The translations under genes and the position numbers were made by a program. A model generated the notes under the pieces. That model saw nothing but the letters and a program-made list of their open reading frames with translations. It did no database searches and was not told the DNA's origin. Below, one piece after another: positions 2,452-62,046 of a DNA stretch of 64,000 bases (position 1 is the first letter of the stretch; every line of letters begins with the position of its first letter). The stretch comes from Octopus sinensis (lineage: Eukaryota). The DNA is taken from the NCBI RefSeq assembly GCF_006345805.1, contig NC_043026.1:9176001-9240000 (forward strand). Reading direction: 5' to 3'.

Positions 2452-3040
2452 GGATTTGAAAATACATTCTTTTAGCATTTATTTACATGTGTGAAAAATA
2501 TATCTATGCACATATACTTGATATGATGCTCATGATTGCACATTCAATACAGTTGTAGAAATTAAAAAGTAATAAGCAGAATTGGTGAAAAATGACCGCT
2601 CGGTACTTCTGCTGTTAACTAAATGTGTATCTATTCATATAGATGTATGACTATCAATGTGACAATTCATAAGAACAATAAGCATTTTGAGCTTCTAAAA
2701 TTGTGGTAGTGTTGTGGGCTTTCTCCATGGCATTAACCAAACTATTCATCAGGGAATTGTTGTAATTGCGGAAGTTCCTTCTATGCCAAAACATAAAGAA
2801 TAAGGGACACTCTCTCTAACTATATATGTAATCACACAGGAGAGGAGATAGAGCTGTGTGTGATAACAGCCTCCTAACTCCAGAGTTTATTTCACCACAT
2901 CTCAGGTAACTCACCTGTGGGATATTTTTTTTTATTAAAAGCAACTTTTGTGTAGGTTTTAAATTTTGTCTTGCATGAATTTTAAGAATCTGTTAAAACC
3001 AATAGGTGTGGCCGTGTGGTATGAACCTTGCTTCCTAAGC

Positions 3041-3274
3041 AAGGCGGCCAGCTGGCAGAACCGTTAGCATGCTGGGCGAAACGCTTTGCGGTAATTCATC
3101 TGCCGCTAACGTTCTGAGTTCAAATACGGTTGAGGTCGACTTTGCCTTTAATCCTTTCGGGGTCGATTAAATAAGTACCAGTTACGCACTGGGGTCGATA
3201 TAATCGACTTAATTCGTTTGTCTTTCCTTGTTTGTCCTCTCTGTGTTTAGCCCCTTGTGGGTAGTAAAGAAATA
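3041..3274 (+). mobile_element. tRNA-derived SINE (family 2) nested in the head of a family-1 SINE
   Basis: GAGTTCAAAT B-box; GTCGACTTTGCCTTT..GGGGTCGAT central domain; 18-bp TSD GGTATGAACCTTGCTTCC at 3018-3035 and 3275-3292; duplicated near 10897-11129. Confidence 0.8.
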
Positions 3275-3451
3275 GGTATGAACCTTGCTTCCCAACTGCA
3301 TGCTTCTGGGATCAGTCCCACTACATGGCACCTTATGCAAGTCTATTCTACTAGAACACTAAGCCGAACAAACCCTTGTGAGTGGATTTTTTAGAGGGAA
3401 ACTGAAAGAAACCCAACATTTATATTTGTCTTCCTGGCTATTAATCTTTAA

Positions 3452-4228: not shown

Positions 4229-4408
4229 TATTCCTTTACTACCCACAAGGGGCTAAACACAGAGAGGAGACAAACAAGGACAGACAAAGGGATTAAGTCG
4301 ATTACATCGACTCCAGTGCGTAACTGGTACTTATTTAATCGACCCCGAAAGGATGTCGACCTCAGCGGAATTTGAACTCAGAGCCTAACGTTCCTGCCAG
4401 CTCGCCAC
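4229..4408 (-). mobile_element. SINE family 2
   Basis: Same body on minus strand; TSD-like TTT(G/A)CAGTATCC on both sides; homologous copies near 12087, 34691, 48406, 60093. Confidence 0.75.
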
Positions 4409-5009
4409 ATTTACAGTATCCTGTCCCTTATATTATTACGTTTGAACCTTAAGGGTATGTCCTGGCCCTTGCCACCATCTATATCTCTTTCTTCCCTTAC
4501 TCAACGATCCCCATTTATGTTCTGATCCCCTCCCTAGTGAATACGCCCATCATTTTGCCACTATCTCCATCGTGTTGTCTCCCACCCTCTATCTCCTTCT
4601 CCTGCATTTCCCTCAGGCTGGGTAACCATGTATCTCCTTTGTGGCGGCACACCTGTTTCTGTCTTCATCCTGATCTCTCTCTCTCTCTCTGGCCTGGTAA
4701 ACTTGTACTTCCTCCACAGCAACAGACAGATCACAACAACAGATGCTGCCCAACACACGGAACCAAACCATGAACATGCTACAGAATTTCAACTGTGATA
4801 CAACTCCCACTGTTCCAGATAGAGTTCGTTAAAACTTGCCAAACCTGTTACTTGACAATTTGTAAGACATTTGCCATGTATTTTTATAAGGGGTTGTAAT
4901 AAATAACAGTGCTAGATCTTGTCATTTGTTTATACATGGTAACTCCAGGGACACCGACTACACCAGTTAATGCATAATCAGAGTGAGTGATTAGAATTTT
5001 ATTTTTGTC

Positions 5010-7856: not shown

Positions 7857-9934
<2,078 letters not shown>

Positions 9935-12900
9935 GAAAACCTTTTCTCTGTGAGTGGTGACTGAACCCTTTACCATGCAGGTTATTCTGTCGAATGTGAT
10001 GTTTATTTATTCACATTATTTTCAAATTGTCTTACATTATCTCACAGCTTTCAAGTTTTTACGATATGATTGTTTGTATTTAGAATGACATTGTAGGTAG
10101 GTGCAAGAGGCCAACTCTGGCTAGTTTGACTGTAAGATAGATAGAAAATTTGGACCAGGTATGGCCACTTTAAATGCTAAAGAGCTAACCCTACAAGTAA
10201 CAACATTTCTTACTTCCTACAAGGACCATAGGGGACCATTTTTGACTGTCATTGAAAATCACATTTAATACAATTTATTTTAAATATCAGCAAATGCATT
10301 GAATAAAGGATTTGAAAATACATTCTTTTAGCATTTATTTACATGTGAAAAATATATATCTATGCACATATACTTGATATGATGCTCATGATTGCACATT
10401 CAATACAGTTGTAGAAATTAAAAAGTAATAAGCAGAATTGGTGAAAAATGACCGCTCGGTACTTCTGCTGTTAACTAAATGTGTATCTATTCATATAGAT
10501 GTATGACTATCAATGTGACAATTCATAAGAACAATAAGCATTTTGAGCTTCTAAAATTGTGGTAGTGTTGTGGGCTTTCTCCATGGCATTAACCAAACTA
10601 TTCATCAGGGAATTGTTGTAATTGTGGAAGTTCCTTCTATGACAAAACATAAGAATAAGGCACACTCTCTAACTATAAATGTAATCACACAGGAGAGGAG
10701 ATAGAGCTGTGTGTGATAACAGCCTCCTAACTCCAGAGTTTATTTCACCACATCTCAGGTAACTCACCTGTGGGATATTTTTTTTTTTTATTAAAGCAAC
10801 TTTTGTGTAGGTTTTAAATTTTGTCTTGCATGAATTTTAAGAATCTGTTAAAACCAATAGGTGTGGCCGTGTGGTATGAACCTTGCTTCCTAAGCAAGGC
10901 GGCCAGCTGGCAGAACCGTTAGCATGCTGGGCGAAACGCTTTGCGGTAATTCATCTGCCGCTAACGTTCTGAGTTCAAATACGGTTGAGGTCGACTTTGC
11001 CTTTAATCCTTTCGGGGTCAATAAATAAGTACCAGTTACGCACTGGGGTCGATATAATCGACTTAATTCGTTTGTCTTTCCTTGTTTGTCCTCTCTGTGT
11101 TTAGCCCCTTGTGGGTAGTAAAGAAATAGGTATGAACCTTGCTTCCCAACTGCATGCTTCTGGGATCAGTCCCACTACATGGCACCTTATGCAAGTCTAT
11201 TCTACTAGAACACTAAGCCGAACAAACCCTTGTGAGTGGATTTTTTAGAGGGAAACTGAAAGAAACCCAACATTTATATTTTGTCTTCCTGGCTATTAAT
11301 CTTTAACCCTTTCGTTACTAACCGGCTCTGGCTCTGATTACAAATGTCTTGTTTCCATAAGTTTTGAATACAAATCTTCCACCAAATCTTAGTCACAATT
11401 TATGCTCCTAACACTAGCTCAATGATAACTAAGTTATTTTACTAAATTCTTTGTTATATTTAAAGTAATTGAAAAAAAGCATCTCAAAATAAATACAGTA
11501 ACGAAAGGGTTCAATTATTACAAATGAGAAAATACATGAAGCCAAGTGAAATTGCAAGCACTGAAAATACTAGTTTCTCTTCCGGACCACCAGTCATTTA
11601 TAAGGAATGGTCCTTACCGTTTTTGTGCAGAGAGAAAGAAGGAGAGATGGAGATGAGATCAGGACAACTGATGCTGCCCAGCACACAGAACCAAACCAGG
11701 AAGATGCTACAGAATTTCAACTGTGATACAACTTCCACCGTTCCAGATAGAGTTTGTTAAAACTTGCCAAACCTGTTACTTCACAATATGTAAGACATTT
11801 GCCATGTATTTTTATAAAGGGTTGTAATAAATAAATCGCATTGAATTTACGTGGTTCTTCTTGTCATTCTTTTGTATTGGGTAACTCCAGGCAGACAGAC
11901 TAGACCAGTGAATGCATAACCAACACACAGGTACATCAAGATGAACCAGCCACAGTTAACTCGCAAGCAAAACTCATAACCAATGCTACAGAATTTCAAC
12001 TGTGATACAACTCCCACTGTTCCAGATAGAGTTCGTTAAAACTCAACACCCCCCTACACTCTAATCATGCTTCCTTTGCAGTATCCTATTCCTTTACTAC
12101 CCACAAGGGGCGACAAACACAGAGAGGAGACAAACAAGGACAGACAAAGGGATTAAGTCGATTACATCGACTCCAGTGCGTAACTGGTACTTATTTAATC
12201 GACCCCGAAAGGATGTCGACCTCAGCGGAATTTGAACTCAGAGCCTAACGTTCCTGCCAGCTCGCCACATTTACAGTATCCTGTCCCTTATATTATACGT
12301 TTGAACCTTAAGGGTATGTCCTGGCCCTTGCCACCATCTATATCTCTTTCTTCCCTTACTCAACGATCCCCATTTATGTTCTGATCCCCTCCCTAGTGAA
12401 TACGCCCATCATTTGCCACTATCTCATCGTGTTGTCTCCCACCCTCTATCTCCTTCTCCTGCATTTCCCTCAGGCTGGGTAACCATGTATCTCCTTTGTG
12501 GCGGCACACCTGTTTCTGTCTTCATCCTGATCTCTCTCTCTCTCTCTGCCTGGTAAACTTGTACTTCCTCCACAGCAACAGACAGATCACAACAACAGAT
12601 GCTGCCCACACACGGAACCAAACCATGAACATGCTACAGAATTTCAACTGTGATACAACTCCCACTGTCCAGATAGAGTTCGTTAAAACTTGCCAAACCT
12701 GTTACTTGACAATTTGTAAGACATTTGCCATGTATTTTTATAAGGGGTTGTAATAAATAACAGTGCTAGATCTTCTTGTCATTTGTTTAACATGGTAACT
12801 CCAGGGACACCGACTACACCAGTTAATGCATAATCCAGAGTGATTAGAATTTTATTTTGTCAGCGTCGCCTGACTGGCGTCTGTGTCGGTGACACGTAAA

Positions 12901-27095: not shown

Positions 27096-27419
27096 CAAAT
27101 AAATGCTAAAAGAATGCATTTTCAAATCCTTTATTCACTGCATTTGTTTATATTTAAAATAAATTCTATTACATAAAAATTTTCATTGGCAATCAAAAAT
27201 GATTGCCATGGTCCTTGCACTAAGAAATATTGGTATTTCCTGTGTTAATCTTTTAGAATTTAAATCAGCCATATCCGGCCCAAATTCTCTACTTATTTTT
27301 TAATCAAACTAGCCAGACTTGGCCTCTTATGCCTACCCGACAATGTCATTCTAAAAATAAACACTCCATTCAAATTTGAAAGCTGTCAGATAATGCCCGA
27401 CGAATTCAAAATAATGTGA

Positions 27420-28006
<587 letters not shown>

Positions 28007-28921
28007 TCAGTCATATGGCTTCTCTCCTATATGGAAACGTTTGTGAGTAGCTAAGCTGTCACTTTGGCAGAATGATTTACCACAGACATCACAGTGACAA
28101 GGCTTCTCCCCAGTATGAATACGTTTGTGTACAGTCAAGTTATAATTTCGAGAAAATGATTTACCACAGATGTCACAGTCAAATGGTTTCTGCCCTGTAT
28201 GAATGCATTTGTGTTTAGTTAGGGTAATACTTTTAGAGAAAGACTTGCCACAGATGTTGCAGTGATATGGCTTCTCCCCTGTATGAACACGTATGTGAGT
28301 AGTTAAAACACTACTTTGAGAGAATGATTTACCACAGATGTTACAGTGAAATGGCTTCTCTCCTGTATGAACGCGTATGTGAGTAGTTAAGATACTTTGG
28401 TCAGAGAATGATGTACCACAGACATCACAGTGATAAGGCTTCTCTCCTGTATGAAGACGTTTGTGTGAAGTCAAGCTACCTTTCTGAAAGAATGATTTAC
28501 CACAAATGTCACAGTGAAATGGCTTCTCTCCTGTATGAACACACTTGTGATAATTTAAGGCACTTCGGTTGGAGAATGACATACTACAGACATCACAGGG
28601 ATATGGCTTCTCCCCTGTATGCAGACGTTTGTGTCTAGTCAAGTTATGTTTTTGAAAGAATGATTTACCACAGATGTCACAGTGAAATGGCTTCTCCACT
28701 GTATGAATACGCTTGTGTTTAGTTACATGAAGTTTTTGAGAGAATGATTTACCACAGATGTCACAGTGAAATGGTTTCTCTACTGTATGAATAAGTTTGT
28801 GCTTATTTAAGTAAGCCTTTTGAGAGAAGGACTTTTTACACACATCACAGTCATGTGACAATTTTTGTTTCCCTTTTTCTTCTGGAAAAATCAGTTCCTT
28901 TAATTTCCCACTCTTTTCCAT
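28007..28921 (-). CDS. ZNF-D: C2H2 protein, 10 intact fingers (304 aa)
   Basis: Uninterrupted [19 protein letters not shown].. with canonical linkers. Confidence 0.92.
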
Positions 28922-28939
28922 TATTTTTCTTCGAAAATC

Positions 28940-28985
<46 letters not shown>

Positions 28986-29247
28986 CTTCTTTTCTGCTTC
29001 TAGAGTTTTTTTTGTTTTTTTTTACAAATATTTCATTTACTGTATTTCAGTCCATTGTTACTTTTGTCTCAAAACTCTTTAGTGAATTTATCCAAGAGAC
29101 ACATCTTGTAGACACTCTGGCCAGTGATGTCCAGAAGGTTTACTAATAACACATTTCAGAGTAAATATATCAGAGGAATTCTGCCATAGATTTATAGAAA
29201 CAATCTTATATATCTGTTCTGTACAATATTTTCATTTTGGTCTTTAA

Positions 29248-32735: not shown

Positions 32736-33090
32736 ACTTTTATTCATTCACTTGTTTGTCATTTTTGACAGTGGTCATGCTGGAGCACCGCCTTTAGTAG
32801 AACAAGTCAATTCCAGAATTTATTCTTTGAAAGCTTAGCACTTATTCTATCAGTCTGTTTTGTTAAACCGCTAATACTGTAATTCTTTTGTGTGTGTGTG
32901 TCTAGGTGTGAGTATATACAAACAATAGCTTCTTTCAAATTTCATATACCAAATCGACAAGGTTTGGGTCAACCTCAGACTATATAAGAAGACATTTGAC
33001 CAAGGTGCCATGCAGTGGGACTGACCCCAGAACAATGTATTTGGGAGCAGGGTTTTTACCACACATTTATGCTAATTGGTTTTGACACTT

Positions 33091-33657
33091 AGTGAACTGG
33101 CAGAATCGTTAGCACGCCGGCAAAATGCTTAGCGGTATTTCGTCTGCCGCTAAGTTCCGAGTTCAAATTCCGCTGAGGTTGACTTTGCCTTTCGTCCCTT
33201 CGGGGTCGATTAAATAAGTACCAGTTACGCACTGGGGTTGATATAATCAACTTAATCCCTTTGTTTGTCCCTTCTGTGTTTAGCCCCTTGTGGGTAGTAA
33301 AGAAATAGGTATTTCGTCAGCCGCTACGTTCTGAGTTCAAATTCCGCCGAGGTCGACTTTGCCTTTCGTCCTTTCAGGGTCAATTAAATAAGTACCAGTT
33401 ACGCACTGGGGGTCGATATAATCGACTTAATCCGTTTGTCTGTCCTTGTTTGTCCCCTCTGTGTTTAGCCCCTTGTGGGTAGTAAAGAAATAGGTATTTC
33501 GTCTGCCGCTTAGTTCTGAGTTCAAATTCTGCCGAGGTCGACTTTGCCTTTTGTGGTCGCTTAAGTAAGTACCAGTTACGCACTGGGGTCGATATAATCG
33601 ACTTAATCCGTTGTCTGTCCCCTCTGTATGTAGCCCCTTGTGGGTAGTAAAGAAATA
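33091..33657 (+). mobile_element. Head-to-tail trimer of SINE family 2
   Basis: Junctions AAAGAAATA|GGTATTTCGTC; outer TSD GGTTTTG(A/G)CACTT at 33078-33090 and 33658-33670. Confidence 0.8.
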
Positions 33658-34019
33658 GGTTTTGGCACTTTTGTAACAAAACTCATGGAAAACAAAATTT
33701 TGCGATCTGAGAAAAATTGCCTTTATTAAAAAATATCCCACAGGAAAATTGTCTTAGCTGTGGCGACATAAAACCCTGATTGGGAGGCAGTTACCACACA
33801 CACTTGAACCACATCTCCTGTGTGAATACATTTATAGTTAGACAGTGTGTCACCTTTTTTCCTTTTCTGTTCTGGCATAGAATGAACTTTGACAAATCCA
33901 GCAATTCCCTGATGAACAGCCTGGTTTTTGCCATGGAGAATGCCTGCAGCACTACCACCAATTTAGGAATTTAAAATGGTTATTTTTCTCATGAATTGTC
34001 ACGTTGATAGTCACACATA

Positions 34020-34190
34020 GGCGCAGGAGTGGCTGTGTGGTAAGTAGCTTGCTAACCAACCACATGGTTCCAGGTTCAGTCCCACTGCATGGCATCTGGG
34101 GCAAGTGTCTTCTGCTATAGCCCCGGGCCAACCAATGCCTTGTGAGTGGATTTGGTAGATGGTAACTGAAAGAAGCCTGTCGTATATGTG

Positions 34191-36039: not shown

Positions 36040-37015
36040 CTCTTTACTCTTTTACTTGTTTCAGTCAGTGACTTTGAGTAAGTCCTCAACACCACCGTCT
36101 TCCTTTCAAGCTCTTTTAACCATTTTTTGGGAGCTGTCAAGTCCCACACAAGAAATTCCTTTGCCATTTCAACACAAAGTTCAATTACAGTTCAAAATGT
36201 AAGAAAATAAAACAAGACACAAAAAAAGAAGGGAAGAAATAAAATAAAAAATAACAGTTCAAAAAAGAGTTCTTTTATTTTTTAAAATAAACGAAAGCTT
36301 TGAAGAAGAGAGTTCAAATCCAGGCAAAGAAATAAATTAATTTTCGGCTGAAAAGGTTCTCCTGGCCAAATGTACATAGGTTCCTTGGTATGAATCGTCT
36401 TTACCCGTAATTGGTAAAAGAAATCCAAACACAATACTGGCTACAGCCAACGGTAACTGTAACAGGTTCTAATCATTCGGGCGAGGATACGTCCCTCCAC
36501 TGTTTTTTTTTTTTTAATGAATCCAAAATATTCACACTAAATTCACAAAACAGCAGGCGAAATTTGTTAACAAAAAATAATAATATAACAAATTACACCC
36601 AGCTCAGATAAAACACAATCACTTGCCTCGACAACCTTCTCTGTTTTTGTTCTTTTTTCTTGTAATTGGCCAGAGCCAAAACACTCACGTCCACCTTGCA
36701 AAAACAGTCCTTCCTGCCTTGGTAATCCTTGGTAATCCACAGACACAAAGATAATTTTCGCAAAGAAATTAATCTTTGCAGAGGGGCTACGCCTCCTCGA
36801 AAACACAATTCTCACTGCAAAGTGAGTCTTTATAGGCGGCCACAGGCAGGAAAATGTCTGGAGCAGACTGGAGTCTATTACTCACCAAAAAATATTAAAT
36901 ACAGGGCAACAAACTCCACTAAGCCCTCAAAAAATACGACAAACGTCTACCTGTAGTCGAGCCTCAAAGTTCAATATTTCACGACGAAAGACGTGACATC
37001 AAGCAGCAAGAACTC
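36040..37015 (-). mobile_element. 5' region plus first ~33 codons of an ORF1-type retroelement, joined to a family-1 SINE tail
   Basis: ATG at 36167 gives MAKEFLVWDLTAPKK.., paralogous to the ORF starting at 38377. Confidence 0.65.
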
Positions 37016-37217
37016 GTGGGCTGGACATAGACATTAATGAACGATGGTGATGGAACAAAGATGGTGATGGGAGAAGACGAAAGCGCCCGCCGACCCCTGC
37101 TTCTCTAAGACAATGTCCTTTTTTTCAATAAGTTCAAAAATGTTCAAAATTTTACAAATGTCACAAGAGGCAATGAACCTCTTTTTCAATATGATGCACA
37201 GCATCCACAGGTTTCAG

Positions 37218-38377
37218 TTACCCGGCCGACCAGCGCTCTTGCTTCCTTGAAACACTCACCCGCTTCCAACCAGGCCGCACAAGTAGAAATGTAAAGGTAT
37301 TCGCGATCCTGCACAGATCATTTTCCAATAGGAGCTCCGCAGCTACCTGCGAAGGCCACTTAGGGTCCTCTGTGCAGGACCGGAGACCCTTCCATTGGCC
37401 TCTCCATTTCATTTTCCTTATCTTGTTCTCCATGGTCCCTCCCTTGTGGAAGAGGACCACATAATTGACCTCCGACGGTTCATCTACCTGAGGAGGCTCG
37501 GGAGAGGCCGTCTGTGTGTCAAAATCCGCCTGCGGCGTCCCGTTTCTTTTCTTTTTTCCTTGGGCCGCGGGAGGTTTAGGTTCCGGTGTTGCACACAACG
37601 GATCCTCTTTTTCTCTCACAGCTTCCGGGTCTTTTGGTGGGTCACCATTGTTTCCCACTTTTCTTTTTCTCGTTGAGGAAGTTACTGCTTCCTCGTTCTG
37701 TTTCTCTCCCTCCTTTGAGGGGACAGGAAGAGGCTCCAACATCAACTGCTCTAGCATCCTACTTTGGTCCTTGGGGCAGTTCTTCTTAATGTGGCCGGTC
37801 TCCAGGCACAGGTGACACCTGGGGGGGGGGGGCGTCCCTCAAGCATCACCGGATACCTGGACACGGCCATCCTCAAGAAATCTGGGAAAACCAGACTTTT
37901 GGCTGATTGGGTCCACAGGGTCAACACAGCTTTTGCCCCTTCCCAATCAGCCCCAGGCAACACTTTTACATTCAGCAGCTTGGAACTGCTACCATCCAGA
38001 CCCCAGCGGATAGAATCCTCTATCCACTCGGGTTCAACGCCGGGTGGTAAGCCGCAGATCCAGGCTCTCAATAATTTTTCTCCCTTGTGATTTGGGAGAA
38101 ACAACACTTCTTTGCCCTCAAGGGGCTGGCTTGCAAAATCGCAAGCTTCTTTTGGGGAGTCAAACAGCAACCAGACCGTTGCGTATTTCACTCCCCGTGC
38201 GATAAATTTAAGGGCTGGCATGTAATCCGCCAGCTCGTTCAGTATGGTGGCCTTCGGGAAGACGGCTGTGGTGTGGAGCGACTTCGAGTAAGTCCTCAAC
38301 ACCACAGCCTCCTCCTCCAGCTCTTTTAAGTACTTTTTGGGAGGTGTCAATTCCCACACCGTAAATTCCTTTGCCAT
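37218..38377 (-). CDS. ORF1/gag-like nucleic-acid-binding protein of an L1/Tx1-type non-LTR retroelement with CCHC zinc knuckle; one frameshift
   Basis: Joining ORFs 37751-38470 and 37218-37757 across the G12 run (37821-37832) gives ..EGRPP-RCHLCLETGHIKKNCPK (C-x2-C-x4-H-x4-C), then a basic low-complexity tail. Confidence 0.75.
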
Positions 38378-39270
38378 GGTAACACAAAGTTCAATAACAG
38401 TTCGAAGTATAAAGAAATAAAAATAGACACAAAAAGGAGAATGAAAAATACAACAGAAGGGAAGAAACAAAATTAGAAATAGCAGGTCAAAAAAGTTCTT
38501 TTTCTAAAAATAAATGAGAGCTCGAAGAAGAGAGTTCAAATCCAGACAAAGGAATTAAATTTTTTCTTTTTTCTCTTTTCTCTTTTTTAGGCCAAAAAAG
38601 GTACTCCAGGCCAAATGTCCAGCTGGTAAAACACCTTGCAAAAAGAATCCATGGTACTCCGTGGTAAATCCGGTGGAAAACACAAAGACAATTTCAAAAC
38701 ACATTAATTTTTGCGGAGGGGCTACGCCTCCTCGCAAACACAATTCTCACTGCAAAATGAGTCTGTAAAGGCGGCCACAGGCAGGAAAATGTCTGGAGCA
38801 GACTGGAGTCTATTACTCACCAAAAAATATTAAATACAGGGCAACAAACTTCACTAAGCCCTCAAAAAATACGACAAACGCCTACCTGTAGTGGAGCCTC
38901 AAAGTTCAATATTTCACAACGAAAGATGTGACATCAAGCACCAAGAACTCTCCGCCAAAGATAACCAAGCTACTTACCACACAACTACTCCTGTTTACTC
39001 AATTTGAAAACTCTTTGTATTGTCTTTTGTCTCCTGTGTCTGTGTGTGTGCGCCTAAGTTCATATATGATAGTGTCCATTTATATCACGCAAAAATTGAT
39101 AAAAATTTGAGAATTAAAATTAAATATCTTTTTCTAATTGATAGAATTTTACTAAACCTTTGGATGGCAAATTGAAAATAATGTGAATAAATAAACATCA
39201 CATTCGACAGAATAACCTGCATGGTAAAGGGTTTCAGTAACCCCTTAGAGATTATGATTTAGCGCAAATA

Positions 39271-40107
39271 TTAGTGGGATTGCTTCTTCCCCTTATGAAC
39301 ACATTTGTGAGAAGTTAAGCTGCTATGTTGAGTGAATGACCTACCACAGATATCACAAGGATATAGCTTCTCTCCTGTATGGATACGTTTATGGGTCATT
39401 AGGTTACTACTGGTAGAGAAAGATTTATTACAGACATCACAAGAATATGGTGTTTCTCCTGTATGAAAACGTCTGTGTCCAGTTAAGTTAGAACTCACGG
39501 TGAATGATTTACCACAGATATCACAATGATAGTGTGACTCTCCTGTATGAATACGTTTATGATAAGTTAGAGCACTTTTACCAGGAAATAATTTACCACA
39601 GATATTACAGGAATATGGCTTCTTTCCTGTATGAATAGGTTTGTGATTAGTTAAAGCACTTCTTTGAGAGAATGATTTACCACAAATATCACACTGAAAT
39701 GACTTCTCTCCTATATGAAGACGTTTATGATAAGTTAGAGCACTTTTACCAGAAAATGATTTACCACAGATATTACAGGAATATGATGTCTCTCCTGTAT
39801 GAAGAAGTTTGTGTTTAGTTAAAGCACTTCTTTGAGAGAATGATTTACCACAGATTTCACAGTGAAATGGCTTCTCTCCAGTATGAACACGTATGTGAGA
39901 ATTTAAATGATTTCGGTCAGAGAATGATTTACCACAGATTTCACAGTGAAATGGCTTCTCTCCTGTATGAATACGTTTGTGCTTATTTAAGTTACCTTTA
40001 CTTGAGAAAGACTTTTTACACACATCACAGTCATGTGACAATTTTTGTCTCTCTTTTTTGCTATCTTCTGGTAAAATCTGTTCCTTCACTTTCTCACTCT
40101 TTTCCAT
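39271..40107 (-). CDS. ZNF-E: C2H2 protein, 9 fingers (278 aa), intact
   Basis: Uninterrupted ORF MEKSEKVKEQILPED.. to KKQSH*. Confidence 0.95.
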   Translation of the reverse strand: MEKSEKVKEQILPEDSKKERQKLSHDCDVCKKSFSSKGNLNKHKRIHTGEKPFHCEICGKSFSDRNHLNSHIRVHTGEKPFHCEICGKSFSQRSALTKHKLLHTGETSYSCNICGKSFSGKSALTYHKRLHIGEKSFQCDICGKSFSQRSALTNHKPIHTGKKPYSCNICGKLFPGKSALTYHKRIHTGESHYHCDICGKSFTVSSNLTGHRRFHTGETPYSCDVCNKSFSTSSNLMTHKRIHTGEKLYPCDICGRSFTQHSSLTSHKCVHKGKKQSH

Positions 40108-41944
40108 TATTTTTCCTTCAACTTCACAATATACCTTCTTTTTTTATTCTTTTTGCTTCTGTAGTCTTTTGTTTACAAATATTTCAACTGTTGTATTTCT
40201 GGCCACTGTTACCTTTGTCACAAAACAACTAAATTTATCCACGTTCAATCTGCAAACAGACACATCTTGTAGACACTCCAGCCAGTGATGTCCAGAAGGT
40301 TTGCTAATAACACAATTCAGAGTAAATATATCAGAGGAATTCCACCACAGATTTATAGAAACAATCTTATATATCTGTTCTGTACAATATTTTCATTTTG
40401 GTCTTTAAAAGATGATAAATAATGAGAATGTATCTTCAGTTATGCCAATGTCATCTGATATTCTGAAACAATAAAGAAACAACAGTGTAAGATATAGAGG
40501 CTACTTTAAAAAATACAGATTCAACATTTCCATAAAGATAAACTCTAGAAATAAACATTTAACTGAACAACAGAACTTTCTAATTTATTAATATTGACAT
40601 CACAAAATCCTGTTTGAAGCTAACATATTTCTAAACTCCAGCTCCACATTCATAAATACACACACACACTTTTTTACTGGTTTCAGTTGTTTTGACTGTG
40701 GTCATGCTGGAGCACCAACTTTAAAGGCTTCAGTCAATAGAATCAATGCTAGGACTTATTTTTTGAGCTTAGCACTTATTCTATCAGCCACTTTTGCCAA
40801 ACCACAGGTTTATGGGGACATAAACACACCAACACTGTTTGTCAAGTGTTGAATAGTTGGGAGGACAACACACCCACCCACACACAAATACCTAACAGCT
40901 CACAATTTCTTCTCTTTAACTCCATAAAGAGAAAAATTTACTGGAAATAGTCATTACTCATTTTGCCCCACGAGGAGATTCCACGAATGATTACAAAAAG
41001 TTTATCAGCTAAGCAAATGGCCTTCCCTGAATGCATTGAAAACATTATAACAGAATCAGTATTTCAGGAAATTATCATTGTTCTCTTTGAGTGTGTAGAA
41101 AGAGAAATTTGGCAGAGGCAAGAAAAGGTGAAATTGTCTCTCTCAAATTATCCAGAATTATATTTGAAAACAAAGACTCAAACACATCAAATTCTATCCT
41201 TCGACATCTTAAAGATCAGAAATGCAAAAAGCTATTAAGTATCGAATTCAAATGAAAGAGAATCAGAGAAAAATTGCAAATGATGTGAAATTAATGAATA
41301 TCGAATAAATGGGGGAAAAAAAATCAACATAAAATATCATCAACAGTTTCTTCAAGATCTCTTCGTGGTTAGGGCAGCGGACTCGCGGTCGTAGGATTGC
41401 GGTTTCAATTCCCAGACCGGGCGTTGTGAGTGTTTATTGAGCGAAAACACCAAAAAGCTCCACGAGGCCCCGGCAGGGGATGGTGGTGATCCCTGCTGTA
41501 CTCTTTCACCACAACTTTCTCTCACTCTTACTTCCTGTTGTACCTGTATTTCAAAGGGCCGGCCTTGTCACTCTCTGTGAATATCCCCGAGAACTACGTT
41601 AAGGGTACACGAGTTTCTGGAGTGCTCATCGTCGTAACCGACGGAGTGCTTCCATCCACTGACAAGAGATTATTGAAAGTAGTCATTACTCATTTTGCCC
41701 CATCTTAGTCATGATATTTGATAATTGAAAATTACCAAATTAGACACTAAACGGGGGGGGGGTAAAAATTGATCTGGAATCTAAGAGAGAGAAGAATATT
41801 GATGGTTAAACACCGAACATCATCCAGATAATTTATTAGTAACCTCGATTATTATCGGGTTGAGAGTTGAGGGAAAATTTCTTGAAAATAAAAAGGACCT
41901 GCAACTCCAACTACTATAAGGACAAATTCCCAGTCCTAAATATA

Positions 41945-42489
41945 TATTTCTTTACTCACCACAAGGGGCTAGACACAGAGGGGACAACAAGGACAGAAAA
42001 ACGGATTAAGTCGATTATATCGACCCCGAAAGGAGAATGAAAGGCAAAGTCGACCACGGCGGAAATTTGAACTCAGAACGTAACGGAAGACGAAATATCA
42101 TCTTTTTTTTACTGCCCACAAGGGGCTAAACACAGAGGGAAAGAAACAAGGACAGACATAGGTATTAAGTCGATTACATCGACCCCAGTGCGTAACTGTA
42201 ACTTTATTACTCACCCGCCGGAATTTAAACTCAGAACGTACCGGCAGACGAATACGACGCCACGCAACGGCAGACGAAATATCTATTTTTTTACTGCCCA
42301 CAAGGGGCTAAACACAGAGGAAGAAACAAGGACAGACATAGGTATTAAGTCGATTACATCGACCCCAGTGCGTAACTGGTACTTTATTTATCGACCCCGC
42401 CGGAATTTAAAACTCAGAACGTAACGGCAGACGAAATACGCCCACGCATTTCGCCCGGGGTGTTAACCCTTCTGCCAGCTCGCCGCCAT
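41945..42489 (-). mobile_element. Multimer of SINE family 2 (3 units; 2 units in the paralogous site 53945-54300)
   Basis: Repeated bodies; CCCAGTCCTAAA(A)TATA flanks both ends. Confidence 0.75.
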
Positions 42490-43021: not shown

Positions 43022-43384
43022 TGAAATATTGGTTTCAAATTTTGGCACAACGCCAGCAATATCGGCGGAGGTGTTGGGGGGGGGGCCTAAGTCGCTTACC
43101 TTGACCTCTGTAGACAACTAGTATTTATTTTATTGTGTCCCGCCCCAGCAAAGATATTAAAGGCAAAGTCGACCTCGTCGTAATTTACGCATATATACAT
43201 AAATATCGATGTAGGCACAACACGTGCACCCCACCGATGTCTGGTGTTTTTTTTTGGGGGGGCGGGGGTCCCAAAAATGTTTTTCGGATTCTGATATCAT
43301 CGATATAGAATACGATTTTGGCAACTATCGCGTTTTCGTAGAACACCTATTTACTGTATCTGTAGAAAAACGGCCGTTGAAGAA

Positions 43385-44049
43385 AATATCTTACAAATAT
43401 CTTACAAACTACAGAATTTTCTCAATAAAGCCAAGAGGAAAAGATGTTTTTATGTAACACATTCTACCAGTATACGAAGTTTAAAACTTTTTAGTTACCT
43501 AGAAATTATGTTAAAAACTGCCGTTCAAACAGAAAAGATCCCCAATCTGTTTCTTAAACAAGGGACATATTCATACGGCACAGAATGTTTTTTTACCTCA
43601 ATAGACGTGAGTGATTGGTTGAAATTGCCGAAATGCTTGAAATTAAAGACGAAATTCTTACAAACTACACAATTTTCTCAATGAAGCCAAACAGGAAAAT
43701 ATGTTTTATGTAACCCATTCTACCAGTATACGAAGTTTAAAACTTTTTAGTTACCTAGAAATTATGTTAAAACTGCCGTTCAACAGAAAAGATCCCCAAT
43801 CTGTTTCTTAAACAAGGGACATATTCATACCGGCACAGAATGTTTTTTTACCTCAATAGACGTGAGTGATTGGTTGAAATTGCCGAAATGCTTGAAATAA
43901 AGACGAATATCTTACAAACTACACAATTTTCTCAATGAAGCCAACAGGAAAAGATGTTTTTATGTACACATTCTACCAGTATACGAAGTTTAAAACTTTT
44001 TAGTTACCTAAAATTATGTTAAAAACTGCCGTTCAAACAGAAAAGATCC
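43385..44049. repeat. 256-bp tandem repeat, ~2.6 units
   Basis: GAAAAGATCC at 43532, 43786, 44040. Confidence 0.9.
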
Positions 44050-44216
44050 ATAAACTTTGCCTTTCACTTTTTTTTTTCTGCTGGGTTCAATAAAATAAAT
44101 ACCAGTTGACTACTCGGGTCCATGAAATCGACTGACACTTGACCCTCCCCGAAATTTCTGGTTTTCTACCAAATCTTTAAAAAACAAAAGAAAAAAGAAG
44201 AAAAACCAGTATTTCA

Positions 44217-45086: not shown

Positions 45087-45315
45087 CCCTTTTACCCTAA
45101 CTTATGACGGAAAAATCGATCTTGTACATTTTCCGAATGTCCCCCCCCCCCGGTCGTTAGCACAGTTTTTTTTTTTTTTTTCATCATTTTCGTTTTCTAC
45201 ATAGTTTACGGACAAAACCCTTTGTAACTTTCGTCCTGTGTTTTTGTCCCTTTATGTTTTAATTGATTTTTGTTAGCCCTTGTGGCCAATAAACGAACGA
45301 ATTATTATTATTATT
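45087..45315 (+). mobile_element. Probable 3' end of a non-LTR retrotransposon
   Basis: T-rich UTR ending TTAGCCCTTGTGGCCAATAAA plus (ATT)n; resembles the family-2 SINE tail. Confidence 0.45.
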
Positions 45316-46321: not shown

Positions 46322-47630
<1,309 letters not shown>

Positions 47631-49694
47631 TATTTGTGCTAAATCATAATCTGTAAGGGGGTGACTGAACCCTTTACCATGCAGATTATTCTGTCGATGT
47701 GAGGGTTATTTATTCACATAATTTTCAATTTGTCCTGCATTAACCCACAGCTTTCAAATTTTGATGATATGATTGTGTATTTTCACAATGACATTGTAGG
47801 GTAGGTGTAAGAAGCCGACTCTGACTAGTTTGATCATAAAATAGGTAGAATATTTGGGCCAGATATGGCTGGTTTAAATTCTAAAGAGTGGGACACTAGA
47901 TGCACCAAGTTGTCTGATCTGGCAGTGTTTCTACAGCTGGATGCCCTTCCTAATGCCAACCTGTCTGTGAGTGTAGTGGGTGCTTTTTACGGTGCCACCT
48001 GCACAGGTGCCAGACGAGGCTGGCAAACGGCCACGATCGGATATTTTAAATACAGTCCTGCCCTGTCTCACTGTAGCATTGCTCTCCGCTAGTCCTGACC
48101 TGTATGTTCCACCCCCATTCCCTGTCTTACTGTATTATTGCTACTACTGGCTTGCCCTCAACCTATGTCTTCCACCCACATGTAACAAGAAAACTTTTTA
48201 CACACCCTGCCCCCACAAACCAATCTACATCTCTTTTTCACATTCCTTCCATACACTATGCCTACCTCTCACTCCCCCAATCCTGTCCTCATGGTGCTGT
48301 TCCTCTGTATCATTGCTATCCGGTAGCCCCCTGACCCTATATAATACCCAGGTTGTCATCACTCAACACACCCTACACTCTAATCATGCTTCCTTTGCAG
48401 TATCCTATTCCTTTACTCCCCACAAGGGGCTAAACACAGAGGGGACAAACGGATTAAGTCGATTACATCGACCCCAGTGCATAACTGGTACTTATTTAAT
48501 GGACCTCGGCGGAATTTGAACTCAGAGCCCAACGGCAGGCGAAATACCGCCTTTGCAGTATCCTGTCCCTTATATTATGACGTTTAAACCCCAAGGTTGT
48601 GCCCTGGCACTTGCCACCATCTATATCTCTTTCTTCCTTTACTCAAATCCCCATTTATGTTCTGATCCCCTCCCTAGTGAATACGCCCATCATTTAGCCA
48701 CTATATCCATCGTGTTGTCTCCCACCCTCTATCACCTTCTCCTGCTTTTCCCTCGGGCTGGGTAACCATGTATCTCCTTTGTGGCGGCACACCCGTTTCT
48801 GTCTTCATCCTGATCTCTCTCTCTCTCTGGCCTGGTAAACTTGTACTTCCTCTACAGCAACGGACAGATCTCAACAACAGATGCTGCCCAACAAACAGAA
48901 CCAAGCCATGAAGATGCTACAGAATTTCAACTGTGATACAACTCCCACTGTTCCAGATAGAGTTTGTTAAAACTTGCCAAACCTGTTACTTCACAATTTG
49001 TAAGAAATTTGCCATGTATTTTTATAAAGAGTTGTAATAAATAATAGTTGCCTTCAATTTACCTGGTTCTTCTTGTCATTCTTTTATATAAAGGTAACTC
49101 CAGGCACACAAACTAGACCAGCCACAGTTAACTCGCCAGCAAAACTCATAACCAATGCTACAGAATTTCAACTGTGATACAACTTCCACTATTCCAGATC
49201 GAGTTTGTTAAAATTTCTGACGGTTCAACTGGGGTCTGGGAAACCAGAAGGCTGCACTAGGCCCAGTCTGATCTGACAAAGTTTCTACAGCTGGATGCCC
49301 TTCCTAATGCCAACCACTCCGTTAGTGTAGTGGTTGCTTTCACGTGCCACTGGCACGGAGGCCAAACGATGCTGGCAACAGCTACAATCGGATGGTGCTT
49401 TTTACGTGCAACCTGCACGGAGGACAGACGGGCTGCGCTGGCAGCGGCCACGTTCAGATGGTTCCTTTGTGTGTGTATATGTATATATACTACTCGTAGT
49501 AATACCTGTCATTAATTGGGTAATTGCTTTTATTCTTTCTTGAGAGCCCCATTCAAAGTATTATTATATGTATAGTTTACCCCTCCTGTATGTGTGTATT
49601 TTATAAGAGAAAAATGAAATAACTGAAGTAGGAAAAAGACCAGTTTCATACACAGGCTTCTGTTTTATTTATCAGAACACTAATGGCAATTATA

Positions 49695-50734
49695 TACTCC
49701 TTACTCTTTTACTTGTTTCAGTCATTGACTTTGAGTAAGTCCTCAACACCACCGTCTTCCTTTCAAGCTCTTTTAACCATTTTTTGGGAGCTGTCAAGTC
49801 CCACACAAGAAATTCCTTTGCCATTTCAACACAAAGTTCAATTACAGTTCAAAATGTAAGAAAATAAAACAAGACACAAAAAAAGAAGGGAAGAAATAAA
49901 ATAAAAAATAACAGTTCAAAAAAGAGTTCTTTTATTCTTTTAAAATAAACGAAAGCTTTGAAGAAGAGAGTTCAAATCCAGGCAAAGAAATAAATTAATT
50001 TTCGGCCCGAAAAGGTACTCCTGGCCAAATGTACATAGGTTCCTTGGTATGAATCGTCTTTACCCGTAATTGGTAAAAGAAATCCAAACACAATACTGGC
50101 TACAGCCAACGGTAACTGTACCAGGTTCTAATCATTCGGGCGAGGATACGTCCCTCCACTGCTTTTTTTTTTTTTTAATGAATCCAAAATATTCCCACTA
50201 AATTCACAAAACAGCAGCAGCGAAATTTGTTAACAAAAATAACAATATAACAAATTACACCCAGCTCAGATAAAACAAAATCACTGGCCTCGACAACCTT
50301 CTCTGTTTTTGTTCTTTTTTCTTGTAATTGTCCAGAGCCAAAACACTCACGTCCACCTTGCAAAACAGTCCTTCCTGCCTTGGTAATCCACAGACACGAA
50401 GATAATTTTCGCAAAGAAATTAATTTTTGCGGAGGGGCTATGCCTCCTCGAAAACACAATTCTCACTGCAAAGTGAGTCTTTATAGGCGGCCACAGGCAG
50501 GCAAATGTCTGGAGCAGATTGGAGTCTATTACTCACCAAAAAATATTAAATACAGGGCAACAAACTCCACTAAACCCTCAAAATATACGACAAACGCCTA
50601 CCTGTAGTCGAGCCTCAAAGTTCAATATTTCACGACGAAAGACGTGACATCAAGCAGCAAGAACTCTCTGCCAAAAACAAACACGTCCGTCTCCGACAAA
50701 GGTAAGCAAGCTACTTACCACACAACTACTCCTG
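49695..50734 (-). mobile_element. Composite: SINE-1 head + retroelement 5' region/ORF1 start + SINE-1 tail
   Basis: Head at 50701-50734, tail at 49695-49730; a further copy at 60737-61766. Confidence 0.65.
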
Positions 50735-51014
50735 TTTACTCAATTTGAAAACTCTTTGTATTGTCTTTTGTCTCCTGTGTCTGTGTGTGTGCGCCTAAGT
50801 TCATATATGAGTAGTGTCCCTTTAATATCACGCAAAAATTGATAAAAATTTGAGAATTAAAATTAAATATCTTTTTTCTAATTGATAGAATTTTACTAAA
50901 CCTTTGGATGGCAAATTGAAAATAATGTGAATATATAAACATCGCATTCGACAGAATAACGTACATGGTAAAGGGTTTCAGTAACCCCTTAGAGATTATG
51001 ATTTAGTTTAAATA

Positions 51015-52019
51015 TTAGTGGGATTGCTTCTTCCCCTTATGAACACATTTGTGAGAAGTTAAGCTGCTATGTTGAGTAAATGACCTTCCACAGATATCAC
51101 AAGAATATGGTGTCTCTCCTGTATGAATACGTTTATGGGTCATTAGGTTACTACTGGTAGAGAAAGATTTATTACAGACATCACAAGAATATGGTGTCTC
51201 TCCTGTATGAATACGTTTATGTTTAGCTAAGTTGCCACTTTGAGAGAATGATTTACCACAGATTTCACAGTGAAATAGTGTCTCTCCTGTATGAATACGT
51301 TTGTGTAAAGTCAAATAAATATTTTCAGAGAATAATTTACCACAGATATCACAAGAATATGGTGTTTCTCCTGTATGAATACGTCTGTGTCCAGTTAAGT
51401 TAGAACTCATGGTGAATGATTTACCACAGATATCACAAGGATATGGTGACTCTCCTGTATGAATACGTTTATGATAAGTTAGAGCACTTTTACCAGGAAA
51501 TAATTTACCACAGATATTACAGGAATATGGCTTCTTTCCTGTATGAATACGCTTGTGATTAGTTAAAGCACTTCTATGAGAGAATGATTTACCACAGATG
51601 TCACATTGAAATGGCTTCTCTCCTGTATGACAATGCTGGTGATTATTTAAAACACTTTGGTCAGAGAATCTTGTACCACAGACACTACAATGATATGGTG
51701 ACTCTCCTGTATGAATACGTTTATGTTGAGTTAGAGCACTGTTATCAGAAAATAATTTGCCACAGATATTACAGGAATATGGCTTCTCTCCTGTATGAAT
51801 ACGTTTATGTTTAGCTAAGCTGCCACTTTGAGAGAATGATTTACCACAGATTTCACAGTGAAATGGCTTCTCTCCTGTATGAATACGTTTGTGACTATTT
51901 AAGTTACATTTACTTGAGAAAGACTTTTTACACACATCACAGTCATGTGACAATTTTTGTCTCTCTTTTTTGCTAACTTCTGGTAAAATCTGTTCCTTCA
52001 CTTTCTCACTCTTTTCCAT
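51015..52019 (-). CDS. ZNF-G: C2H2 protein, 11 fingers (334 aa), intact
   Basis: Uninterrupted ORF. Confidence 0.95.
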   Translation of the reverse strand: MEKSEKVKEQILPEVSKKERQKLSHDCDVCKKSFSSKCNLNSHKRIHTGEKPFHCEICGKSFSQSGSLAKHKRIHTGEKPYSCNICGKLFSDNSALTQHKRIHTGESPYHCSVCGTRFSDQSVLNNHQHCHTGEKPFQCDICGKSFSHRSALTNHKRIHTGKKPYSCNICGKLFPGKSALTYHKRIHTGESPYPCDICGKSFTMSSNLTGHRRIHTGETPYSCDICGKLFSENIYLTLHKRIHTGETLFHCEICGKSFSQSGNLAKHKRIHTGETPYSCDVCNKSFSTSSNLMTHKRIHTGETPYSCDICGRSFTQHSSLTSHKCVHKGKKQSH

Positions 52020-59322: not shown

Positions 59323-62046
59323 TATTTGTGCTAAATCATAATCTGTAAGGGGTGACTGAACCCTTTACCATGCAGATTATTCTGTCGAATGTGAGGGTTA
59401 TTTATTCCCATTATTTTCAATTTGTCCTGCATTAACCCACAGCTTTCAAATTTTGATGATATGATTGTGTATTTTCACAATGACATTGTAGGGTAGGTGT
59501 AAGAAGCCGACTCTGACTAGTTTGATCATAAAATAGGTAGAATATTTGGGCCAGATATGGCTGGTTTAAATTCTAAAGAGTGGACACTAGATGCACCAAG
59601 TTGTCTGATCTGGCAGTGTTTCTACAGCTGGATGCCCTTCCTAATGCCAACCTGTCTGTGAGTGTAGTGGGTGCTTTTTACGTGCCACCTGCACAGGTGC
59701 CAGACGAGGCTGGCAAACGGCCACGATCGGATATTTTAAATACAGTCCTGCCCTGTCTCACTGTAGCATTGCTCTCCGCTAGTCCTGACCTGTATGTTCC
59801 ACCCCCATTCCCTGTCTTACTGTATTATTGCTACTGGCTTGCCCTCAACCTATGTCTTCCACCCACATGTAACAAGAAAACTTTTTACACACCCTGCCCC
59901 CAACAAACCAATCTACATCTCTTTTTCACATTCCTTCCATACACTATGCCTACCTCTCACTCCCCCAATCCTGTCCTCATGGTGCTGTTCATCTGTATCA
60001 TTGCTATCCGGTAGCCCCTGACCCTATATAATACCCAGGTTGTCATCACTCAACACCCCCTACACTCTAATCATGCTTCCTTTGCAGTATCCTATTCCTT
60101 TACTACCCACAAGGGGCTACACACAGAGAGGAGACAAACAAGGACAGATAAAGGGATTAAGTTGATTACATCGACCCCAGTGCGTAACTGGTACTTATTT
60201 AATCGACCCCGAAAGGATGAAAAGCAAAGTCGACCTCGGCGGAATTTGAACACAGAGCCTAACTTTTCTGCCAGCTCGCCACCTATGCAGTATCCTGTCC
60301 CTTATATTATGACGTTTGAACATCAAGGGTATGCCCTGGCACTTGCCACCATCTATATCTCCCTCTTCCTTTACTCAACCATCCTCATCTATGCTCTAAT
60401 CCCCTCCCTAGTGAATACGCCCATCATTTTGCCACAATGTCCATCGTGTTGTCTCCCACCCTTATCTCCGCCTGCATTTCCCTCAGGCTGGGTAACCATG
60501 TATCTCCTTTGTGGCGGCACACCCTTTCCTGATCTCTCTCTCTCTCTCTCTGGCCTGGTAAACTTGTACTTCCTCTACAGCAACAGACAGATCACAACAA
60601 AAGATGCTGCCCAACACACAAAACCAAGCCATGAAGATGCTACAGAATTTCAACTGTGATACAACTTCCACTGTTCCAGATAGAGTTACTTAAAACTTGC
60701 CAAACCTGTTACTTCACAATTTGTAAGACATTTATATACTCTTTACTCTTTTACTTGTTTCAGTCATTGACTTTGAGTAAGTCCTCAACACCACCGTCTT
60801 CCTTTCAAGCTCTTTTAACCATTTTTGGGGAGGTGTCAAGTCCAACACAAGAAATTCCTTTGCCATTTCAACACAAAGTTCAATTACAGTTCAAAATGTA
60901 AGAAAATAAAACAAGACACAAAAAAAGAAGGGAAGAAATAAAATAAAAAATAACAGTTCAAAAAGAGTTCTTTTATTTTTTAAATAAACGAAAGCTTTGA
61001 AGAAGAGAGTTCAAATCCAGGCAAAGAAATAAATTAATTTTCGGCCGAAAAGGTACTCCTGGCCAAATGTACATAGGTTCCTTGGTATGAATCGTCTTTA
61101 CCCGTAATTGGTAAAAGAAATCCAAACACAATACTGGCTACAGCCAACGGTAACTGTAACAGGTTCTAATCATTAGGGCGAGGATACGTCCCTCCACTGT
61201 TTTTTTTTTTTTTAATGAATCCAAAATATTCCCACTAAATTCACAAAACAGCAGCCGCCGAGAGCAGGCGAAATTTGTTAACAAAAAAGAACAATATAAC
61301 AAATTACACCCAGCTCAGATAAAACAACATCACTTGCCTCGACAACCTTCTCTGTTTTTGTTCTTTTTTCTTGTAATTGGCCAGAGCCAAAACACTCACG
61401 TCCACCTTGCAAAAACAGTCCTTCCTGCCTTGGTAATCCACAGACACAAAGATAATTTTTGCGGAGGGGCTACGCCTCCTCGAAAACACAATTCTCACTG
61501 CAAAGTGAGTCTTTATAGGCGGCCACAGGCAGGCAAATGTCTGGAGCAGAGTGGAGTCTATTACTCACCAAAAAATAATAAATACAGGGCAACAAACTCC
61601 ACTAAACCCTCAAAATATATGACAAACGCCTACCTGTAGTCGAGCCTCAAAGTTCAATATTTCACGACGAAAGACGTGACATCAAGCAGCAAGAACTCTC
61701 CGCCAAAAACAAACACGTCCGTCTCCGACAAAGGTAGCCAAGCTACTTACCACACAACTACTCCTGTTTACTCAATTTGAAAACTCTTTGTATTGTCTTT
61801 TGTCTCCTGTGTCTGTGTGTGTGCGCCTAAGTTCATATATGAGTAGTGTCCCTTTAATATCACGCAAAAATTGATAAAAATTTGAGAATTAAAATTAAAT
61901 ATCTTTTTTCTAATTGATAGAATTTTACTAAACCTTTGGATGGCAAATTGAAAATAATGTGAATATATAAACATCACATTCGACAGAATAACGTGCATGG
62001 TAAAGGGTTTCAGTAACCCCTTAGAGATTATGATTTAGTTTAAATA

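Follow-up and report, generated by a model that had tools for sequence, protein, structure and literature searches.

Does a SINE that lands at GGT in the head of another SINE share this target with the LINE that moves it? The question is raised by a stretch of 64,000 nucleotides of Octopus sinensis DNA (the window), which lies in a tandemly duplicated C2H2 zinc-finger gene cluster of a 2.72-Gb genome. At position 3018 a SINE of one family (family-2, here SINE-2) is inserted in the head of a SINE of another family (family-1, here SINE-1). The original prediction took this and other junctions of the window as the work of a single LINE/SINE pair acting at one GGT(A) site. LINE families are lettered A to E below, and L-numbers designate fetched genomic loci. 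The SINE-2 insertions of the window, with their surroundings, are the following.

3004..3035, plus strand: host SINE-1 head, A-box region; 3018-3035 is the 5′ copy of an 18-bp target site duplication (TSD)
3036..3274, plus strand: full-length SINE-2 monomer with its LINE-derived tail at the end
3275..3430 (end approximate), plus strand: 3′ TSD copy (3275-3292) and remainder of the host SINE-1
4229..4409, minus strand: internally deleted SINE-2 with a 12-bp TSD starting GGATAC
10873..11146, plus strand: segmental duplicate of the 3018 insertion, not independent (flanks 98.6-99.5% identical)
33091..33657, plus strand: SINE-2 trimer, one head and three bodies, with two internal joints at GGTATTTCG
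41945..42488, minus strand: SINE-2 array with GATATTTCG joints (42.1-42.3 kb) and an outer TSD of the TATATTT type; paralogue at 53944-54299

All the junctions on which the original prediction was built are present in the window, including the 18-bp TSD at 3018-3035 / 3275-3292. The outer TSD of the trimer (33078-33090 / 33658-33670) is 13 bp long and starts with GGTTTTG, and that of the minus-strand copy at 4229-4409 reads GGATACTG(T/C)AAA, a junction seen again at 12087, 34691, 48406 and 60093. Because the window is a tandemly duplicated cluster, its independent junctions are few: once segmental duplicates are removed only four outer ones are left, GGT (3275), GGT (33658), GGA (4228) and TAT (41944). 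The host head at 3018 has GGTATG in both TSD copies, as opposed to the usual GGTAAG of SINE-1; GGTAAGTAG was found in 8 of the 14 other SINE-1 heads tabulated from the window, and most of the other window heads have GGTAAG. The C2H2 zinc-finger genes lie at 1-2100, 7900-9950, 27400-29000, 39250-40150, 46400-47650, 51000-52050, 58100-59350 and 62000-63090; several are frameshifted, and they were duplicated along with their repeats. The segment 44990-45310 was found at 18 further places on the same contig, and a unit of ~257 bp is repeated in tandem at 55207-57142 and 43340-44050.

The exact 25-nt tail of SINE-2 occurs 88,011 times in the genome and is followed by GGT in 47,975 cases (54.5%), which is far above chance given a GGTA background of 0.003 per base and strand in the fetched loci. 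The GGT bias foreseen from the window is therefore genome-wide. About half of the GGT-joined tails are head-less repeats of the SINE-2 body itself, with 22,202 tails running into GGTATTTCG, the sequence at position 49 of SINE-2. A second self-joint, AGAAACG, is rarer and falls in the SINE-2 head near position 17 (L018, L022, L028, L329). A hand count of the first 100 tails listed, all from one contig and obtained with a pattern that excluded G at the 15th base, gave 39 self joints, 22 TA, 17 other GGTA and 22 others. Outer junctions were read in 129 insertions from fetched loci that had not been picked by outer target (L081-L110, L171-L189 and L391-L412 were left out) and that, as in the SINE-2 samples generally, come mostly from the first contig; they comprised 48 GG, 43 TA, 19 AG and 19 others. 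A TSD, mostly of 17-19 bp, was detectable in 61 of the 129, and the 5′ copy began with the same three nucleotides in 18 of the 19 GG-class insertions. GGT opens both TSD copies and is therefore target sequence, as had been proposed; the possibility that it is part of the SINE-2 tail was ruled out on this ground. Position -1 is a pyrimidine in 45 of the 61 insertions with a TSD, and in 18 of the 19 in the GG class. The outer class follows the tail variant, since 20 of 24 copies with GGTAAT tails are of the GG class compared with 1 of 25 with GGCAAT tails (p=7e-9). SINE-2 has a loose preference for RY^(GG/TA/AG)WA sites and also inserts in its own head.

SINE-1 has the tRNA-like head with A and B boxes of a tRNA-derived SINE, and tRNA-Ala of this genome aligned colinearly with it (z 5.2), the best of 27 tRNA sequences that represent few isotypes. 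In SINE-2 a B-box-like motif was recognized by eye, the best tRNA alignment reached z 3.1, and Rfam gave no match. No tRNA was detected in the window by ARAGORN or Rfam. Elsewhere in the genome, locus L469 contains at least six distinct tRNA-Cys-like genes clustered within 3 kb. Although exact SINE-1 heads number 117,861 genome-wide, the SINE-2 tail was joined to the usual SINE-1 site GGTAAGWAGYTT only 41 times, against ~108 or more expected by hand arithmetic from 117,861 heads among ~16 million GGTA sites and ~17% of at least 88,011 tails at non-self GGTA, an expectation that takes no account of the relative ages of the SINEs or of a lean towards GGTAT and that still excludes enrichment. A canonical SINE-1 head was found at only 1 of the 129 outer junctions. 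The predicted enrichment of SINE-2 in SINE-1 heads did not hold, the genome-wide count being at or below chance, and the idea that SINE-2 is aimed at these heads was rejected. The SINE-1 head at 3018 happened to have GGTAT, and the insertion there is an ordinary, chance-level event of that type.

The LINE-like sequences of the window belong to an element that encodes ORF1 only and to the 3′ end of a different LINE.

36040..36069, minus strand: 3′ tail of the host SINE-1
36070..37017, minus strand: remnant of a second stacked ORF1-only copy, with 5′ UTR and ORF1 start; the deletion extends into the tail of the host SINE-1
37018..38959, minus strand: near complete ORF1-only (HAL1-like) retroposon, with 5′ UTR, ORF1 from 38377, and 3′ UTR
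38960..38995, minus strand: SINE-1 head that precedes the ORF1-only element, with the 16-nt landing site (38975-38960) as its last part
45208..45300, plus strand: 5′-truncated LINE-C 3′ end followed by (ATT)n, a family distinct from LINE-A and LINE-E
49727..50736, minus strand: paralogue, with SINE-1 head, landing site (50716-50701) and 5′ UTR/ORF1 start of the ORF1-only element
60768..61768, minus strand: second paralogue with the same remnant; landing site from 61748

The window holds two ORF1-only copies stacked in one SINE-1, both damaged by deletions. The near complete one has a CCHC knuckle and one frameshift in ORF1, is missing the last ~30 nt of the 3′ UTR, and is 73.6% identical over 2037 columns to the full copy at L073. 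Pfam recognized in the window's ORF1 only a zinc knuckle, below threshold. ORF2 is absent from the window, which was not matched by tblastn with ORF2; among L061-L080 this search matched L063 only. Elsewhere in the genome the ORF1-only copies measure 2.0-2.5 kb between site copies, have open frames of 400-426 aa and a 3′ end of their own, and are thus complete elements encoding ORF1 only with LINE-type ends. A search with the N-terminal 199 aa of ORF1 returned 9005 first-look candidates, a figure that should not be taken as a copy number. In a sample of 50 loci picked by protein similarity and not by target, four of them without a readable end (including the window copy and a paralogue), 50 of the 51 distinct readable 3′ ends lay at the SINE-1 site, or at the same site fronting a stacked element, with the joint AAG(T/A)AG..; in the remaining one (L036) the SINE-1 site was joined in inverted orientation. 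The original prediction had this element joined 19 nt after the same GGTA as used by SINE-2 (50701-50719), and the 19 nt, counted from the start of GGT, recur at 38960-38978 and 61733-61751. The element's cut is GGT^AAGTAGCTT in SINE-1 heads, 3 nt beyond the SINE-2 cut, and the 19 nt are for this reason 3 + 16. The LINE-A site in SINE-1 is a near-palindrome (e.g., window 34038-34056). The same site in SINE-1 also holds stacked 5′ ends of other elements, distinct from those of LINE-A and of the window's ORF1-only family (L035, L039, L055, L058, L066, L071, L121, L125, L142, L153), so the target is common to more families.

The cut of the ORF1-only element is also that of LINE-A, a 5.4-kb LINE without poly(A) that encodes ORF1 and ORF2 (endonuclease-RT-zinc finger), and the 3′ ends of both, ..GAAATA, are joined to AAG(T/A)AGCTT in SINE-1. 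All 30 LINE-A copies picked by ORF2 were at this site, as were 16 of the 17 readable older matches (20 fetched, 3 unreadable), and the exact 28-nt junction pattern occurs at least 752 times in the genome. Protein and DNA searches favour the best-scoring copies, and degenerate off-target copies are therefore under-sampled in these figures. An intact LINE-A (L211) has zf-CCHC in ORF1 and Exo_endo_phos, RVT_1 and zf-RVT in a 1130-aa ORF2. The best PDB match of LINE-A ORF2 is L1 ORF2p (E 3e-65, vs 6e-20 for R2), and its domain order (N-terminal APE, RT, C-terminal zinc-binding), the lack of LTRs and the short target duplication are those of the L1 group. Full copies are bounded by the 16-nt site, of which the first ~9-10 nt match on both sides and the rest are borne by the element. 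Only 7 of 28 full copies had the same 16-mer on the 5′ and 3′ sides, and the 5′ 16-mer recurs by element subfamily, which indicates that it is largely element-borne. Because LINE-A and the ORF1-only element thus bring along a 16-nt site of their own at the 5′ end, newer copies pile up at one place; in L063 a LINE-A lies between two ORF1-only copies, all stacked in one SINE-1. One 5′-truncated LINE-A with an upstream SINE-1 head and a short TSD was found (L214). The ORF1 of the ORF1-only element and that of LINE-A are only 24-31% identical over the aligned part, tail and target being common to both, and the ORF1-only element is therefore unlikely to be a recent deletion product of LINE-A. We infer that it borrows the LINE-A ORF2p in trans. 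The strict site of the two elements is likely set by a sequence-specific endonuclease nick.

A second LINE family uses the other SINE. LINE-E was recovered from L018, and all 30 of 30 copies were inserted at SINE-2 position 49, 19 of them in C-type and 11 in G-type heads, with the matching base in both TSD copies in 20 of 20 insertions. As LINE-E has C and not G at the site in 19 of the 30, GGT is not its determinant. Its copies are young (98-99% identical), and the family may be active. Intact ORF2 frames of 1134 aa were found in L312, L315-L317 and L330. The strict sites of LINE-A and LINE-E bear out the proposal that target-specific L1/Tx1-type LINEs use SINE heads. LINE-B lands in (CT)n (7/7) and LINE-D mostly in (TATC)n (0/45 at GG). 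LINE-C is the family of the orphan end at ~45275, which the original prediction had likened to the SINE-2 tail. Its ORF2 is 59% identical to that of LINE-A, and outside the window paralogues its tails were followed by ATT runs in 21 of 21 cases and by GGT in none of the 21, a count biased by a query that included the first ATT repeats and independently supported by 8 truncated copies with ATT runs on the 5′ side too. The (ATT)n landing and the ORF1-only element's own 3′ end exclude the orphan end as the 3′ end of that element. The ATT-run class is missing among the 129 outer SINE-2 junctions, so LINE-C and SINE-2 have no shared site there. The 3′ ends at L234 and L094 are Tx1-like, with other tails and landing sequences, and possibly represent a sixth and a seventh family.

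In a FastTree analysis of 22 proteins, which did not include LINE-D or a named Tx1 reference, LINE-A, LINE-B, LINE-C, LINE-E, an Argonauta protein and another protein formed one clade with support 100. The LINE ORF2 proteins are 51-71% identical and have, as a clade, five different landing sites. Sequence-specific insertion in multicopy targets, a trait of the Tx1 clade, was found for LINE-A (30/30), LINE-E (30/30) and LINE-B (7/7). The Argonauta protein is the closest named ORF2 homologue, with 63% identity over the RT region; closer matches, mostly to unnamed proteins, came from the RT-region search, the whole-protein search returning distant ones only. The protein atlas gave no clade name for the LINE ORF2.

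The SINE-2 tail is homologous to the tails of all five LINE families (z 3.4-12.5 vs shuffles; LINE-A z 8-12), in agreement with the proposed relationship between SINE and LINE tails. Over the last 40 nt it scored 59 and 53 with LINE-D, 50 and 56 with LINE-E, 26 and 32 with LINE-A, and 29 and 32 with LINE-C; over the full 62 nt LINE-A, with scores of 61-70, did no worse than LINE-D and LINE-E (58-67). Single-sequence folding, with no shuffle or covariation control, gave weak terminal hairpins for the tails. SINE-2 is found at the LINE-A site in SINE-1 (GGT^AAG) only twice in the genome, so that LINE-A is not its mobiliser despite the homologous tail. SINE-2 is likely mobilised by relatives of LINE-E and LINE-D. 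LINE-E is the closest partner candidate, yet it accepts the C-variant site that SINE-2 avoids. C-type heads made up 44 of 100 SINE-2 heads among the matches listed, whereas the self joints were C in 243 cases vs G in 22,202. With C-variant use in 19 of 30 LINE-E insertions vs 243 of 22,445 SINE-2 joints, present-day LINE-E cannot simply explain the SINE-2 joints. The avoidance would reflect either another or older ORF2p, or pairing between RNA and target.

We consider it probable that the window samples a clade of L1/Tx1-type LINEs with homologous 3′ tails and different sites, in which LINE-A and the ORF1-only element insert strictly in SINE-1, likely through an endonuclease nick, and SINE-2 inserts loosely and in its own head, likely moved by relatives of LINE-E and LINE-D and not by LINE-A. 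The single pair of the original prediction would read GGT(A) in tRNA-SINE heads and target both SINE-1 and itself, the ORF1 element and the 45.3-kb end being its two ends. The GGT after 54.5% of the SINE-2 tails, the homology of the tails (z 3.4-12.5 vs shuffles) and the insertion of both LINE-A and SINE-2 in SINE-1 heads, at sites no more than 3 nt apart, all agree with such a pair. It is nonetheless very improbable: the cut sites differ, with SINE-2 at the LINE-A site in 2 copies, SINE-2 is under expectation in SINE-1 heads, a C in the first position is accepted by LINE-E, the ORF1 element ends in a 3′ sequence of its own, and the 45.3-kb family lands in (ATT)n. Equally hard to credit is the suggestion that LINE-A and the ORF1-only element are composites with SINE-1 ends that move as a unit, with no targeting of SINE-1. 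The 16-nt site that they have at the 5′ end and the SINE-1 sequence that always flanks them could be read in this manner, but different families are stacked in succession inside one SINE-1, and the downstream SINE-1 variant changes from copy to copy, following old or young SINE-1 types.

The origin of the SINE-2 chains admits more discussion. The favoured reading is that GG-class copies enter heads already present, their 5′ ends being joined by homology, and that local duplication follows. It may instead be that chains are copied whole, by Pol III read-through of a one-head multimer whose RNA is retrotransposed as a unit with its GGTATTTCG joints inherited, a possibility that we regard as less likely but as a serious rival. 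A single outer TSD encloses each chain, the SINE-2 reference copy has no run of four T, and few nested copies show both a TSD and a second head (60 matches only, many of them in local tandem runs). Chains with C-type heads and G-type joints exist (L373, L386, L387, L389; L372, L375), although they are also predicted by head replacement during homologous 5′ joining. Against whole copying, the first and last units of 34 closed arrays showed 12 different tail-variant combinations, and the last unit looks older, with a slightly higher divergence (4.0 vs 3.2% in the first, p=0.044; 20 of the 34 arrays); an earlier test of unit age on 17 arrays was not significant (p=0.17). That the chains are tandem duplications at the DNA level, by unequal exchange or slippage and without self-targeting, is improbable as a general account. 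At least two private mutations are common to 33 of 86 adjacent unit pairs vs 1.8% of random pairs, and the long chains at L224 and L225, whose units have private mutations in common, were clearly amplified locally. On the other side, the units of 26 of 35 dimers are independent, with fewer than two private mutations in common, the last body of several chains comes from a related SINE family that has another tail, and the fixed breakpoint is the LINE-E site. DNA duplication is insufficient for most dimers and holds for a subset. The related SINE at the ends of chains has the same head and a different tail (L336, L371, L379, L380, L384, L386, L388, L390). Local tandem runs of a 65-67 bp fragment of the SINE-2 head form small satellites (L395-L403 and further matches).

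In the mechanism that we propose, the LINE-A ORF2p would recognize the 3′ tail common to LINE-A and the ORF1-only element, nick the bottom strand at GGT^AAG and reverse-transcribe from the nick, and the 5′ end would be joined when the site carried by the element pairs with the overhang of the target. The same ORF2p would serve the ORF1-only element in trans. Head-less SINE-2 chains would arise mostly when a GG-class copy enters an existing one at position 49 and its 5′ end is joined by homology; the long chains are extended further through local DNA duplication, as the private mutations common to their units reveal. A more speculative extension, which we put forward tentatively and with less than even confidence, is that the target of SINE-2 is inherited. 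The LINE endonuclease would provide only an RY^ nick, and the first bases after it would be set by pairing with the 3′ end of a read-through SINE-2 RNA, a copy of the landing site of the parent. Heritable GG, TA and AG lineages and self-feeding head insertions would result, within a guild of LINEs that divides two main SINEs and microsatellites. The classes linked to the tail variant (20/24 vs 1/25, p=7e-9) and the exclusion of C-type heads fit this idea, and successive or parallel LINE partners account for the same data equally well. If the target is inherited, SINE-2 copies in SINE heads would breed more head insertions.

Target-primed reverse transcription by APE-type LINEs, specificity set by the endonuclease and the use of LINE tails by SINEs are described in PMC4494074, as are Tx1 families whose targets are other transposons and which are followed there by a SINE (Kojima 2015). 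The octopus families resemble the crocodilian Tx1-Mar/SINEU and Xenopus Tx1L in Tx1D of that account in that Tx1-type LINEs insert into another transposable element, a SINE has the same preference, copies are stacked in tandem at the site and there are sister families targeting microsatellites. The Tx1-Mar and Tx1L group targets given in that article are DNA transposons, LTR elements, snRNA genes and microsatellites, whereas in octopus they are single bases in SINE heads. Unlike Tx1-Mar/SINEU, octopus has two LINE families each on a different SINE and an ORF1-only follower, and unlike SINEU, SINE-2 does not have the target of the window's LINE. By landing site only, LINE-B in (CT)n, LINE-C in (ATT)n and LINE-D mostly in (TATC)n can be likened to the microsatellite-targeting Kibi and Koshi of the same article. 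The ORF1-only element is, as in the description of HAL1 (half-L1) in PMC5753468, a non-autonomous L1-group derivative encoding ORF1p only; it differs in being found in a mollusc, without poly(A), with a strict target and with an ORF1 24-31% identical to that of LINE-A. The single-base hotspot of SINE-2 within its own family recalls the single-nucleotide hotspot reported for Alu into Alu (Levy et al., PMC2836564), but nested SINE-2 copies lose the head and are joined into chains, and an autonomous LINE is strictly targeted to the same base. In Octopus vulgaris, 13 recently active L1-Tx1 families and abundant unclassified SINEs have been reported (PMC13282606); the main text of that article does not contain the words 'target', 'nested' or 'ORF1', and its repeat library or supplements may name these families. 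Target-specific insertion in the Tx group is noted in PMC3747384, and the available text of PMC5911963 covers tRNA-gene targeting with Tx1 unmentioned. A literature search, whose scope left Repbase/Dfam entries, supplements and most subscription journals as places that could hold them, returned no description of a Tx1 family targeting SINE heads or of these octopus families.

With these results, single bases inside SINE heads are added to the known targets of Tx1-type LINEs, and an ORF1-only parasite is seen to use the same strict site as an autonomous LINE. The sharing of a LINE tail does not identify the partner of a SINE, which is a warning for studies of such pairs, and SINE chains with nested LINEs will confuse the annotation of octopus repeats. 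The five landing sites within one ORF2 clade are a natural series for mapping how the specificity of APE endonucleases changes, a question that bears on targeted gene insertion.
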